Virus record (IMG/VR): IMGVR_UViG_3300006482_000005
Length of the DNA: 27,823 bases
From: a virus
Strand: one strand, 5' to 3'
Shown here: piece by piece, positions 8,098 to 27,823 of the stretch
How the letters are laid out: every line of letters starts with the position of its first letter
How positions within the stretch are numbered: position 1 is the stretch's first letter
The notes under the pieces: model-generated
What the model was told of the DNA's origin: nothing
The model's database searches: none
What the model saw: the letters and a program-made list of their open reading frames with translations, nothing else
Program-made: the position numbers and the translations under genes

Positions 8098-8523
8098 GTG
8101 CCTCGGACAAACGTCGGTGCGGCCGCGAAGACCTCCACGCGGAAACTGGAGATCGCCGAGCGCCGGGCCGAAGTGCTCCGGCTCCGGAAGCAGCGCGATC
8201 CCCGGCTATCCATCCGGGACATCGCAAAACGGCTTGAGATCCCCCGCTCGGTCGTCCACAGGGACCTGATGCACGAGATTGGGATTGCTCAGGCGAAGCG
8301 CACGATGCAGGCCGAGAAACTGATCGATATCGAACTCCGGGAACTCGAATCCCTCCTCATCGAGGCCAAGCTCCACGTCGAGGACGGGAGCGAGACGGCC
8401 ATCGACCGGGCGTTGAAGATCCTCGAATCCCGGCGGAAGCTCCTCGGCCTCGACGCGGCGCAGAAGGTCAATGTGAATGGCATCGCGGAACTCCACTTCG
8501 ATAAGGAAGACGAGGACCTATGA
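8098..8523 (+). CDS. terS: Terminase small subunit (HTH)
   Basis: LSIRDIAKRLEIPRSVVHRDL HTH and AIDRALKILESRRKLLGLDA, directly before terL. Confidence 0.75.
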   Translation: MPRTNVGAAAKTSTRKLEIAERRAEVLRLRKQRDPRLSIRDIAKRLEIPRSVVHRDLMHEIGIAQAKRTMQAEKLIDIELRELESLLIEAKLHVEDGSETAIDRALKILESRRKLLGLDAAQKVNVNGIAELHFDKEDEDL

Positions 8524-9767
8524 GCGGCATCAAGAAGACCCCCAAGCAGCGCCGCGCGATCGCCCTCATGAGCGACCCTGATATCCGGTATATCCTCCTC
8601 TCCGGCGGCTCCCGGAGCGGCAAGACATTCATTGCCTGCTACTCTATCGTAGTCCGGGCGCTCAAAGCCCCGGGCTCCCGCCACGCAATACTCCGGTATC
8701 ATTTCCGCGACGTGAAGAACTCGGTCGGGCGGGACACCATGCCGAAGGTGCTCGGGCTCATCGGCGTTACCTACGAACTCGATAAGACCGACTGGTTCTT
8801 TACGCTCCCCAACGGCTCTGAGATATGGCTCGGCGGGCTCGACGACGATGAGCGGGTCGAGAAGATCCTCGGCATGGAGTATTCGACGATCTACTACAAC
8901 GAGTCCTCCCAAATCTCCTACCACGCATACACCACGGCACAGACCCGCCTCGCGCAGAAGACCTGTCTCGTCAACCGGGCATATGTGGACTGCAACCCGC
9001 CGACAAAGAGCCACTGGCTGCACAAACTCTTCTTGGAGCATATCGACCCGGAGACCCGCGTCCCGGTCCCGAACCCTGGCCGCTACGCCGTCCTCGACAT
9101 GAACCCGATCGACAACCGGGAGAACCTGCCGGACGGCTACATCGAGGACACGCTCGCGGCTCTGCCGGAACGCAAGCGCCGCCGGTTCCTTGAGGGCGAA
9201 TGGCTTGACGACCCGGAGGGGGCGCTCTGGAAGCGGAGCATGATCGACGAGCACCGGCACACGGGGAAACCGCCAACCCTCGCGCGTATCGTCGTCGGCG
9301 TCGATCCTGCCGTCACTGGGAGCGAGACGAGTGACGAGACGGGGATCGTCGTCGTCGGCAAAGACGCCGCCGGGCACCTCTACGTCCTCGGCGATCACTC
9401 CGTCCGAGGCACTCCGCTCGATTGGGCCAAGCGCGTCGCGTGGGCCGTCGATAAGCACGGGGCGGATCGTGTGGTTGGAGAGGTCAACAACGGCGGGGAT
9501 CTCGTCGAAGTCAACCTCCGCACCGTCAGCAAGGCGCTCCCGTTCAAGAAGGTGACTGCGAGCCGGGGCAAATACATTCGAGCCGAGCCGGTCGCCGCAC
9601 TCTACGAGAAGGGGGAGGTTCACCACGTCGGCGCGTTCCCGGAGTTAGAGGATCAAATGTGCGAATGGGTGCCCGGCGACGAGTCCCCCGACCGCATGGA
9701 CGCGCTCGTATGGGCGATCACCGAACTCGCCGAACCCGTCGAGGAGTTCGCCTGTTTCGCATTATAG
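8520..9767 (+). CDS. terL: Terminase large subunit
   Basis: Walker A GGSRSGKT, Walker B YYNES, coupling motif DCNP, nuclease GVDPA and C-terminal PDRMDALVWA. Confidence 0.95.
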   Translation: MSGIKKTPKQRRAIALMSDPDIRYILLSGGSRSGKTFIACYSIVVRALKAPGSRHAILRYHFRDVKNSVGRDTMPKVLGLIGVTYELDKTDWFFTLPNGSEIWLGGLDDDERVEKILGMEYSTIYYNESSQISYHAYTTAQTRLAQKTCLVNRAYVDCNPPTKSHWLHKLFLEHIDPETRVPVPNPGRYAVLDMNPIDNRENLPDGYIEDTLAALPERKRRRFLEGEWLDDPEGALWKRSMIDEHRHTGKPPTLARIVVGVDPAVTGSETSDETGIVVVGKDAAGHLYVLGDHSVRGTPLDWAKRVAWAVDKHGADRVVGEVNNGGDLVEVNLRTVSKALPFKKVTASRGKYIRAEPVAALYEKGEVHHVGAFPELEDQMCEWVPGDESPDRMDALVWAITELAEPVEEFACFAL

Positions 9768-26241: not shown

Positions 26242-26964
26242 TTAGGGGTCCAGCACCACAATTTTGACGCGCTTACCGGAGTATTTCCGGGCCAGGGTGA
26301 CGTGCGCCGTGCCCCCAAAATTCTTGGCGACGCCCTCCAGCACGACGTATCCCCGGATCTGGTAGCAGTCCGGCTCCGGGATCGCGTCGCGGAGATCCTG
26401 TCGATAGTCGAGGAGGTAGGCCCGGACTGCCTCGCGCCCCGCGACAATCACCACGTTTTCGGCGGCCGCCTCCTCGACGATCCTGTCGGCGAGCGACTCG
26501 ATCGCGGCGTCCGTGGTCTCGTGCGACAGGTCCGGCACGCCGCCGGAGAGCCAGTCCCCGACGTGCCACAGACCGCCATCGTGCAGCGGGGGCTCGATCC
26601 GATCCATCCAGGCGTCGAAATCGTTTTTCTCGTCCTCGTGGCCTGGGAACCGGCCGAACTGCTCGATGTCCTCCCAGACCGTCTCATATGCCCCCAGGAG
26701 CGGGGCGGCGCGCGGAAGCACCTCGTCCTCGACCCACTCGCGGATCTGTGTCGCGTCCACGAGCGGCGGGAGCGTGTAGGCGTCCCCCATCCCGCGCCAG
26801 CGATACTCGGATCTCGTGTTGTCGTCGTGCGCCCGGGTCTCGGCGCTGATGATCTCGCTCGCCCAGTCGATGACCAGGTAGATCCGCCGGGGCTGTCCGT
26901 CGCCATCGGTCTCCAGGAGCGCCGTGGGGTTGTCGTAGTCGAGAGCGAGGGTGAGGGGGGCCAT
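26242..26964 (-). CDS. Acidic hypothetical protein with a C-terminal DUF2080-like domain
   Basis: C-terminus VAKNFGGTAHVTLARKYSGKRVKIVVL resembles DUF2080. D/E-rich N-terminal region. Confidence 0.65.
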   Translation of the reverse strand: MAPLTLALDYDNPTALLETDGDGQPRRIYLVIDWASEIISAETRAHDDNTRSEYRWRGMGDAYTLPPLVDATQIREWVEDEVLPRAAPLLGAYETVWEDIEQFGRFPGHEDEKNDFDAWMDRIEPPLHDGGLWHVGDWLSGGVPDLSHETTDAAIESLADRIVEEAAAENVVIVAGREAVRAYLLDYRQDLRDAIPEPDCYQIRGYVVLEGVAKNFGGTAHVTLARKYSGKRVKIVVLDP

Positions 26965-27390
26965 TTACTCCACCCCCAACACTGCGTCGATCTCCGCGAG
27001 CCGCGCGAGCAGCCGCGCCCGCTCCTCTTCCAGCGCCGCCCGGTCGGGCCCAGTTCGCGCCGCCGCGATCGCCGCTGCCGAGGTCTCGCACTCCTCGATC
27101 GTGATCTCCGAGCCAGTCACGCTCCGCACCACGCCGTACCAGCGCTTCGGGTGGCGCTTGCCCCCGCTGCTCGTGTAGTCGGCAGCGATCTCGACCGCTT
27201 TGCCGACGACCTCCGGGCCGACGATATATAGATACCGCCCGCGCCCGCTCTTGACAAACTCTCGCGCCAGGCCGCCCGGGGCCGCCGGGTCTGCCTCGAT
27301 CGTCGCCATCCAGTTCTTGCCGCGTGAGTGGGCCTCGTAGATAGGGGCCTCGACCATCGCGCCATCCTCAATCTTGTAGGTCTCTGTCAT
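26965..27390 (-). CDS. Hypothetical protein with a C-terminal coiled coil
   Basis: ORF abuts the next gene. ATG at 27390 (alternative GTG at 27399). Ends LEEERARLLARLAEIDAVL. Confidence 0.75.
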   Translation of the reverse strand: MTETYKIEDGAMVEAPIYEAHSRGKNWMATIEADPAAPGGLAREFVKSGRGRYLYIVGPEVVGKAVEIAADYTSSGGKRHPKRWYGVVRSVTGSEITIEECETSAAAIAAARTGPDRAALEEERARLLARLAEIDAVLGVE

Positions 27391-27408
27391 CTGTTTCACA
27401 TCCTACAA

Positions 27409-27440
27409 TATATCTATTAGATATACTTGTATATATAACT
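27409..27440 (-). promoter_or_regulatory. TATA box (TTATATATA) with a downstream palindromic operator-like site
   Basis: AT-rich block. Perfect 8-bp arms TATATCTA-T-TAGATATA at 27409-27425 between the TATA box and the start codon. Confidence 0.55.
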
Positions 27441-27483
27441 ATCGTATATGATGACAACTCCCTCCCCACCGGAGACGATCGGC

Positions 27484-27564
27484 AAAAACAGGGCCCGGAA
27501 TGGGCGCCTGTAGAACTGTCATGAGACAATAGAGTATGATTTCAATCCACGCCCGGAGGGCGAC
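27484..27564 (-). CRISPR. CRISPR-like mini-unit: shortened type I-C repeat, 30-nt spacer, degenerate repeat hairpin, U-tract
   Basis: GTCGCCCTCCGGGCGTGGATTGAAAT (27564-27539), spacer 27538-27509, GGCGCCCATTCCGGGCCC (27508-27491), TGTTTTT. No cas genes in the window. Confidence 0.7.
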
Positions 27565-27588
27565 ACATTGAGATTGACCCAGATCTAA

Positions 27589-27602
27589 ATATAGTTTTTG
27601 CC
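27589..27602 (-). promoter_or_regulatory. BRE/TATA-like promoter of the CRISPR-like RNA
   Basis: GGCAAAAACTATATTTA. First T of TATAT lies 29 nt upstream of the repeat's first G. Same 11-mer as at 26200-26210. Confidence 0.65.
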
Positions 27603-27626
27603 AGGGCGACTGCTGCAAAACAAGAG

Positions 27627-27698
27627 AGCCTCGGGCGGGAATCGAACCCGCGACCTCTTCCTTACCAAGGAAGCGCGATACCGCTATGCCACCGAGGC
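27627..27698 (-). tRNA. tRNA-Thr (GGT)
   Basis: 72 nt. Acceptor GCCTCGG/CCGAGGC, anticodon arm CTTCC-TTGGTAA-GGAAG, T-arm GCGGG-TTCGATT-CCCGC, no encoded CCA. D-stem has an A12-C23 mismatch. Confidence 0.92.
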
Positions 27699-27699
27699 G

Positions 27700-27771
27700 C
27701 CGCACTCAGGGATTAGGTGGGTTCGGCTGCGTCCTTACCAAGGACGCGCTCGACAACCGTGTCAGATAGAA
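27700..27771 (-). pseudogene. Decayed tRNA-Thr(GGT) copy retaining only the anticodon arm
   Basis: GAGC-GCGTCC-TTGGTAA-GGACGC at 27751-27729, offset 73 nt from the intact anticodon arm. Acceptor and T-arm do not pair. Confidence 0.55.
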
Positions 27772-27794
27772 GAGATCCCAACTTGAAGTCAAGA

Positions 27795-27823
27795 TGCGAG
27801 GGGTGAGATTCGAACTCACGAAC
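27795..27823 (-). tRNA. 3' end of a tRNA, probably tRNA-Leu, truncated by the window edge
   Basis: Minus strand GTTC-GTGAG-TTCGAAT-CTCAC-CCCTCGC-A gives a T-arm plus acceptor 3' strand matching GCGAGGG-starting archaeal Leu tRNAs. Anticodon not visible. Confidence 0.7.

Follow-up and report, generated by a model that had tools for sequence, protein, structure and literature searches.

A solitary type I-C-like repeat unit in a provirus of a Methanoculleus-like host: a candidate RNA anti-CRISPR with a conserved guide

Anatomy of the unit and its surroundings

The window (the whole 27,823-nt stretch of DNA that was analyzed) carries near one end a compact unit built around a type I-C-like CRISPR repeat. 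It is followed by the first genes of a leftward operon and preceded by a tRNA gene. The rest of the window belongs to a tailed virus, with a large terminase, a portal, a prohead protease, a tail tube, tail fibres, and a primase-like protein. The features of this end of the window are as follows.

27626-27698, minus strand: tRNA-Thr(GGT), probably the site of integration, bounding the provirus on the host side
Between tRNA-Thr and the extra GTCGCCCT, minus strand: short trailer, read from the sequence
27449-27616, minus strand: accessory cassette of 168 bp with the whole unit and a tail of ~40 nt, delimited by variant contigs without it
27610-27484, minus strand: whole unit, read from the letters as box, repeat, spacer-like segment, second hairpin, and T-run
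27603-27610, minus strand: extra GTCGCCCT 5' of the TATA box, identical to nt 1-8 of the repeat, read from the sequence
27586-27593, minus strand: TATA-like box TATATTTA, A/T-rich, centred ~33 nt 5' of the repeat start, putative promoter element
27539-27564, minus strand: type I-C-like repeat GTCGCCCTCCGGGCGTGGATTGAAAT, 26 nt, from sequence and folding
27562-27550, minus strand: repeat stem CGCCC/GGGCG with loop TCC, preceded by GTC, from sequence and folding
27549-27539, minus strand: 11-nt handle TGGATTGAAAT, the 3' end of the repeat, an exact match
27509-27538, minus strand: spacer-like guide of 30 nt, whose first 26 nt (27538-27513) are kept across four units
27491-27508, minus strand: degenerate second repeat or hairpin GGCGCCC-ATTCC-GGGCCC, from sequence and folding
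27484-27490, minus strand: TGTTTTT run, likely an archaeal oligo-T terminator
27397-27438, minus strand: conserved promoter/operator block TATATATA ... TATATCT-AAT-AGATATA ... GGATGTGA, the second conserved block of the four-way alignment
26968-27390 and 26242-26964, minus strand: leftward-operon genes adjoining the unit, used in the family searches

Every element described in the first-pass annotation lies where it had been placed on the minus strand, and its statement that cas genes are lacking agrees with our scan of the larger ORFs of the window, which gave no cas family match. Type I-C repeats end in TGGATTGAAAY, which gives an 11-nt 5' tag after the cut by Cas5c, and this end is found in the handle. 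The handle had been called an exact one; TGGATTGAAAT is present and is the same as in all I-C repeat types read from Methanoculleus, Methanocalculus, and Methanocorpusculaceae. The repeat had also been described as ~6 nt too short at the hairpin, and it is indeed 26 nt long in the window versus 32 nt in the host genus. GTCGC and the hairpin are present, but the stem has 5 bp and the loop 3 nt, whereas host repeats have 7 bp and a loop of 4-5 nt. The 26-mer occurs once in the window and had 0 matches in 100 shuffles. Its exact sequence is absent from IMG/VR, the GTDB genomes, and the JGI metagenomes, and this short version of the repeat is unique to the window so far.

RNA folding gave a repeat hairpin with 5 bp and a 3-nt loop, an open handle and guide, and then the 3' hairpin. 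The z-scores of the fold are weak (-0.9 to -2.6), and thus the structure alone is not the evidence. In a hand alignment, the second hairpin shares ~17/26 positions (about 65%) with the first repeat. Oligo-T runs are transcription termination signals in archaea. The extra GTCGCCCT may have remained from an older repeat or have arisen by chance.

The first-pass annotation placed the unit within the provirus on the assumption that a tRNA gene is the attachment site, and the similarity of the flank to host genomes ends at the 3' end of tRNA-Thr. The 5' 42 nt of this tRNA gene are identical in Methanoculleus, Methanofollis, Methanocalculus, and Methanocorpusculaceae genomes. The flank beyond it has 87% identity to the Methanoculleus genomes G016 and G006, over 27623-27772 only. 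An 18-nt near-copy (17/18) of the anticodon arm of tRNA-Thr is located upstream of the gene at 27732-27749; it is host sequence and not an att duplicate, because it is also found in the flanks of G016 and G006. At 27793-27823, the last letters of the window are the 3' part of a further tRNA. Related proviruses with 70-82% nucleotide identity are present in four Methanoculleus genomes, and a 228-nt stretch of the gene next to the unit is 88% identical to the Methanoculleus virus Blf4. By these comparisons, the host of the provirus is Methanoculleus-like. The large terminase (8520-9767) is 49% identical to those of Synechococcus phages; no archaeal virus in the GenBank phage set is as close. Contigs from RNA libraries (X16 and X20), which as contigs cannot show absence, cover the neighbouring genes and the tRNA, not 27355-27574.

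The leftward operon starts with the second conserved block. TATATCT-AAT-AGATATA is a perfect inverted repeat between a TATA-like box and a ribosome-binding site, and the four unit-bearing viruses all have it, including G001, in which another gene follows. It is likely an operator for a dimeric regulator. A guide complementary to this adjacent promoter/operator was considered and rejected, as the resemblance was gapped, weak, and found by eye only. The genes at 26968-27390 and 26242-26964 had no matches in Pfam, PHROGs, PADLOC, or the ESM Atlas besides a sub-threshold DUF2080 tail. Part of the 240-amino acid gene next to the unit has 88% DNA identity to a hypothetical gene (121 amino acids) of Blf4, which is lytic. 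Both genes are anti-defence candidates by position only.

Related viral units and the type I-C system of the host genus

A search of IMG/VR with the spacer gave three viral contigs (L059, L060, and G001) that have a homologous unit, and the seed pattern of the guide matched only these three homologous units in that database. One of the unit-bearing relatives is a complete virus of 48.5 kb with a terminase 92% identical to that of the window, and its unit is internal; in G001, the unit is mid-genome, between viral genes. The repeats of the relatives are full length (31 nt) and near-canonical for type I-C, with GTCGCACCCCCGCGGGCGCGTGGATTGAAAT in L059 and GCCGCACCCCCGCGGGTGCGTGGATTGAAAT in L060 and G001. 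The unit is more than a chance sequence because it is homologous: the same handle and guide are found in three viral contigs, and the same 12-nt end in host arrays.

The four-way alignment has two conserved blocks, namely the handle with the first 26 nt of the guide, and the promoter/operator of the next gene. Within the 26 nt, the four units vary only at positions 13, 18, and 23. The sequence 5' of the repeat comes in three unrelated contexts, one of which is shared by L060 and G001, and each context includes an A/T-rich box ~30-35 nt before the repeat. L059 also has GTCGCCCGG 21 nt 5' of its repeat, and its upstream 300 nt match proviruses in two Methanoculleus genomes. The stem-loop differs among the units by indels and substitutions with pairing mostly kept; folding indicated stems of 7 bp in G001, 6 bp with one mismatch in L059, and 5 bp in the window. 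At the place equivalent to the second hairpin, the relatives have CCCCGG-CCT-CCGGGG, which differs from the sequence of the window, and the T-run of the window is not conserved in the relatives in this alignment. The near-invariance of guide and handle, amid unalignable upstream sequence and a stem-loop that bears indels, argues for a sequence-specific role.

The unit also exists in a polymorphic state. In contigs from two runs (compost and landfill DNA), 27448 is followed by 39 other letters and then by 27617; they represent this provirus at its tRNA-Thr junction, lacking the cassette. The 39-nt linker has only a marginal 13-nt similarity to the cassette. The same landfill run holds the unit-bearing form, in a contig covering 27404-27542. 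Related proviruses in G046 and G052 are without the unit, and it is absent from the 48 Methanoculleus genomes searched. From its internal position in a complete virus, its homologs in relatives, and the cassette-free variant, the unit is an accessory, polymorphic cassette of the virus group. A decayed host array, the origin that the first-pass annotation named as fatal to its proposal, is excluded by the internal position in the complete virus and the absence from the 48 genomes of the host genus.

The proposal also presupposed a type I-C locus with comparable repeats in the host lineage, and this was found in Methanoculleus. Cas8c (PF09709) is present in 14 of the 48 genomes (E ~1e-170 to 1e-116). 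The operon has the order cas3-cas5c-cas8c-cas7-cas4-cas1 followed by the array, and its precomputed Pfam matches are Cas5d, Csd1, Cas7, Cas4, Cas1, and Cas2. Arrays of ~20-190 I-C repeats ending in CGTGGATTGAAAT were found in at least 13 of the 48 genomes. The repeats of the host genus are 32 nt long (GTCGCACCCTTCRCGGGTGCGTGGATTGAAAT), with the types GTCGCACCCTTCRCGGGTGCG..., GTCGTGCCTCACGYAGGCACG..., and GTCGTGCCCCACGCGGGCACG..., and the viral repeats are near-identical to the type GTCGCACCCTTCRCGGGTGCG..., a subtype match at the genus level. The last 12 nt of the host-genus repeats and of the viral unit are identical (GTGGATTGAAAT). The stem of the window is the host-genus stem shortened by 2 bp, and the handle is unchanged. 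G006 and G016, whose tRNA flank is the most similar to that of the window, yielded no Cas8c match.

In the I-C arrays, five spacers were found to match the window at 0-1 mismatch: G023 has two of them, and G013, G057, and G050 have one apiece. A 5'-TTC PAM accompanies four of the five matches, and type I-C immunity in Methanoculleus is therefore indeed directed at this virus group. Another type of array, with a 37-nt repeat (GTCACAGCGCATCAGAAAACCCGATAGGGATTGAAAC), is located in L153 (G048:C1:34500-38500); at least six of its spacers match the provirus at 94-100%, so that two CRISPR types of the genus target the virus group.

A solitary full-length I-C repeat, GTCGCACCCTTCGCGGGCGCGTGGATTGAAAT, was observed in a host locus, L101 (G025:C5), at 2675-2706 on the minus strand, ~170 bp upstream of cas3 and pointing away from it. 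It has the GGGCGCG variant that also occurs in the unit of the viral contig L059. The element is possibly a host CreR/CreA-like one. Its spacer is unrelated to the guide and had no convincing target. The other four of the five I-C loci have no degenerate repeat upstream of cas3.

Possible targets of the guide and the start of cas5c

A full protospacer was searched for in several sets. None was found in the 48 Methanoculleus genomes at up to three mismatches over 23 positions, in IMG/VR with an exact 16-nt seed beyond random low-GC matches, in the GenBank phages including Blf4, or in the related viral loci compared. Within the window, the best seed for self-targeting was only 8 nt and distant from the unit. 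Three functions had first been proposed for the RNA, i.e., sequestration of Cascade subunits, guidance to a cas promoter, and targeting of a competing element. Guidance to a cas promoter gained a concrete candidate site at the start of cas5c; targeting of a competing element was left with no protospacer.

The candidate came from a scan of five complete I-C loci for PAM-proximal guide matches, in which every sixth position was ignored. Type I effectors ignore every sixth position of guide pairing. The outstanding match is on the antisense strand at the cas5c start in G051, CTC|CATACACTATTTCCTC, which agrees with positions 1-16 of the L059 guide except 6 and 12. The cas5c start in G012 has TTC and guide positions 1-10. 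When cas5c starts in metagenomes were scanned for the seed, six I-C operons were obtained, by a pattern already requiring guide positions 1-11. One allele (L265) has CTC and positions 1-16 with only position 6 off. The others have TTC, followed by positions 1-14 in L269 and L270, 1-13 in L271, and 1-11 in L267 and L268. The matches of 1-13 to 1-16 at cas5c are counted against the L059 spacer variant, which has C at position 13; the window guide has T there, giving a U:G wobble with that cas5c allele.

In a shuffle test on the five I-C loci, a run of 16 as seen with the L059 variant occurred in 1 of 3000 shuffles (P ~3e-4), and for the strict run of 12 that the guide of the window itself makes at cas5c, P was ~0.10. 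Across the order (401 genomes), the seed pattern had 14 matches versus ~27 for the reversed control, i.e., no overall enrichment. G051 was the only Methanoculleus genome among those sampled order-wide with the seed pattern, and the match is in its I-C operon. The best-matching cas5c alleles carry CTC, unlike the TTC of real protospacers. Moreover, the reverse complement of the guide resembles a generic ribosome-binding site followed by ATG, and for this reason equally long seed matches occur at unrelated gene starts in other genomes. Allowing for alternative analysis paths, the overall P of the guide-cas5c link is ~1e-3 to a few 1e-2, which is suggestive. Another candidate target, the 5' untranslated region of hsp20 in L105 (another genome of the order; TTC PAM, 22/30), was judged to be a chance match because ~14-27 seed matches are expected at the scale of the order.

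The cas5c site spans the ribosome-binding site and the first codons and is ~50 nt downstream of a TTATAAATAG box. This AT-rich TTATAAATAG is conserved in L100-L103, where it lies inside the 3' end of cas3 at ~50-60 nt before cas5c, in a coding region otherwise rich in G+C. The box may serve the effector genes cas5c-cas8c-cas7 as an internal promoter, and Cascade parked at the cas5c start could block the expression of these genes.

Known crRNA-like elements and the possible roles of the unit

RNA anti-CRISPRs (Racr) derive from viral solitary repeat units, and RacrIC1 was experimentally validated against type I-C (Camara-Wilpert et al. 2023, PMC10651486). As in Racr, a single viral repeat of the subtype present in the host genus stands right behind a promoter-like element with no cas genes, small genes of unassigned function adjoin it, and the host lineage has the cognate system. 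The repeat occurs in one copy in the 27.8-kb window, in the intergenic space between tRNA-Thr and the first leftward gene, and in tailed-virus surroundings. At the sequence level, the unit thus conforms to the definition of a solitary repeat unit aimed at the I-C system of the host genus. It differs from Racr in that the virus is archaeal (of a methanogen), the repeat is cut to 26 nt, the guide-like segment is more conserved than the repeat stem, a second hairpin is present, and its activity is predicted from sequence. SRUFinder calls a mini-array at 90% repeat likeness (PMC10651486), and the second hairpin of the unit, ~65% like the repeat, is below this rule. The solitary-repeat survey in that paper mentions archaeal hosts; the accessible part of its supplements has no Methanoculleus or archaeal rows. 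The viral solitary-repeat RNA class is already known, and the unit stands out within it by the archaeal setting and the unusually well-conserved guide. The first-pass annotation knew of no such case in methanogen viruses, and our literature search likewise found no published description of such a unit in Methanoculleus or other methanogen viruses. Blf4 has no I-C-like solitary repeat, and its host carries type I-U (PMC8540584).

Viral crRNA-like RNAs named Cracr make Cas effectors silence their own genes or CreT toxins, with I-C among the types (Liu et al., bioRxiv 10.1101/2024.10.29.618823). The cases described are all from bacteria, and the class is defined by similarity to a host CreR/CreA with at least 9 PAM-proximal nt (bioRxiv 10.1101/2024.10.29.618823). 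The unit shares with them the degenerate viral mini-array, a reported type (I-C), and, as a candidate feature, PAM-proximal pairing of part of the guide (here 11-16 nt) with a cas-locus site near a likely promoter of effector genes. The candidate site here is, however, the cas5c start inside the operon and not the upstream cas promoter, and the match is statistically suggestive only. The unit falls outside the formal definition of Cracr because no host CreR counterpart was found; a host CreR/CreA with this guide is absent from the 48 genomes of the genus and the 401 of the order.

Mini-CRISPR arrays of Sulfolobales viruses have spacers that match related viruses and are attributed to virus-virus conflict (Medvedeva et al. 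2019, PMC6858448). They also combine an archaeal virus, a host-type repeat with a spacer, and a lack of cas genes. In the present unit, by contrast, the second repeat is degenerate and no protospacer was found, and because of the latter it does not qualify as such an array. CreTA and CreR are located inside cas loci, CreA with an adjacent toxin gene (Li et al. 2021; bioRxiv 10.1101/2023.03.10.532045). The crRNA-like architecture and the idea of Cascade binding without cleavage via partial complementarity are common to both, whereas the unit is on a provirus with no adjacent target, away from the location of CreTA.

The unit most likely specifies an RNA that subverts host CRISPR defence. Here, we tentatively prefer the possibility that it is a solitary-repeat anti-CRISPR crRNA mimic of the SRU/Racr/Cracr kind that would also dock Cascade on the cas5c start. 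This reading is favoured by the handle mimicry, the presence of I-C in the genus, the spacers against the virus, the accessory viral cassette, the conservation of the guide, the cas5c match, and the precedents of Racr and Cracr. Against it count the length of the repeat in the window, 6 nt below that of every host repeat read, the absence of a Cas8c match in G006 and G016, which have the closest flank, the weak points of the cas5c match given above, and the search for a host CreR/CreA with this guide, which found none. Transcription, processing, loading, binding, and repression are steps that we infer, in the following order. Transcription from the own TATA promoter would start a few nucleotides 5' of the repeat. 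Cas5c of the host would recognize the shortened hairpin with the handle and cut at the base of the hairpin, leaving the 5' tag UGGAUUGAAAU, and Cas7 and the other Cascade subunits would assemble on the conserved guide. The 3' end may be set by the substitute hairpin and the T-run, so that a second cleavage would not be needed. The loaded complex would be useless for defence, and this is the decoy effect. In addition, PAM-proximal pairing of 11-16 nt may lead to docking on the cas5c start, just downstream of the AT-rich TATA-like box in the 3' end of cas3, and Cascade binding without cleavage would lower the expression of cas5c-cas8c-cas7 in a Cracr/CreR-like mode. A more specific proposal, which we regard as rather doubtful, is that the guide RNA evolved in the virus with no host CreR template and parks I-C Cascade on the cas5c start, turning off cas5c-cas8c-cas7 while leaving cas3 untouched, with position 13 (T, A, or C across the viruses) tracking host alleles.

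All demonstrated cases of RNA anti-CRISPRs and viral crRNA-like regulators come so far from bacteria and their phages, and very little is known about counter-defence in methanogen viruses. The unit is a small, clearly bounded, and naturally polymorphic candidate of 168 bp, and its cognate system is well defined, i.e., Methanoculleus I-C with a TTC PAM and spacers against the same virus. If the unit works, archaeal viruses, and the Cas5c-processed type I-C of archaea, would be added to the known range of repeat mimicry. If docking on cas5c is true, a virus would be able to invent a cas-silencing guide without copying a host regulator.

As a somewhat unlikely alternative, the RNA may be a pure decoy in the strict Racr sense. 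It would titrate Cas5c and Cas7 via the repeat and handle into aberrant subcomplexes, and the guide would be targetless and conserved only by recent common descent of the cassette. The experimental validation of RacrIC1 (PMC10651486) speaks for a decoy. So do the solitary I-C repeats with the same handle, which numbered at least 50 in the first 106 loci from IMG/VR and bear out that this is a common class; the sequence downstream of such repeats is also conserved within phage groups, and no set searched contained a full target of the guide. A decoy, however, needs the stem-loop, and it is the guide that is better conserved here, with wholly different flanks; the cas5c match would also have to be chance (P ~1e-3 to 1e-2).

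That the unit is a viral mini-CRISPR array, whose working crRNA would turn the I-C system of the host on a competing virus or plasmid for superinfection exclusion, is improbable. The layout of repeat, spacer, and degenerate repeat fits this function, as do the precedent in Sulfolobales viruses (PMC6858448) and the conserved seed region, which a targeting spacer would need. No protospacer, however, was found in the 48 Methanoculleus genomes (up to three mismatches), IMG/VR (exact 16-nt seed), the GenBank phages, the window, or the related loci compared, and the guide is 22-30 nt long versus 33-35 nt for the five host spacers that were fully read (array period ~64-68 nt). The same spacer is, moreover, kept in viruses with diverged surroundings, unlike the fast-turning spacers of known mini-arrays. 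More improbable still is an inert relic, i.e., a decaying fragment of a captured array, or a Cas-independent small antisense RNA or DNA site with repeat-derived sequence: the truncation of the repeat to 26 nt, the dispensable cassette with its unit-free variant, the related proviruses in G046 and G052 without the unit, and the non-conserved terminator would fit decay, and Cas-free RNA-RNA pairing is conceivable with a guide antisense to the ribosome-binding region of cas5c, but handle and guide are intact in four contigs and three upstream contexts with a TATA-like box at the same distance in each, and the changes in the stem (7 bp; 6 bp and one mismatch; 5 bp) keep pairing. The remainder of the probability belongs to readings other than a decoy with docking, a pure decoy, a mini-array, or a relic.

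Most of the solitary I-C repeats among the IMG/VR loci have lower G+C and other stems and look unrelated to this virus group; high G+C (0.62-0.63) together with this guide was found only in the three relatives among those loci. The loci L155-L232 comprise dozens of viral contigs, with lower G+C in most of them, whose solitary I-C repeats have the handle GTGGATTGAAAT. Downstream sequence is conserved within several groups of these contigs, such as ten contigs in which it starts with ACCATCGTGCAAGCC.
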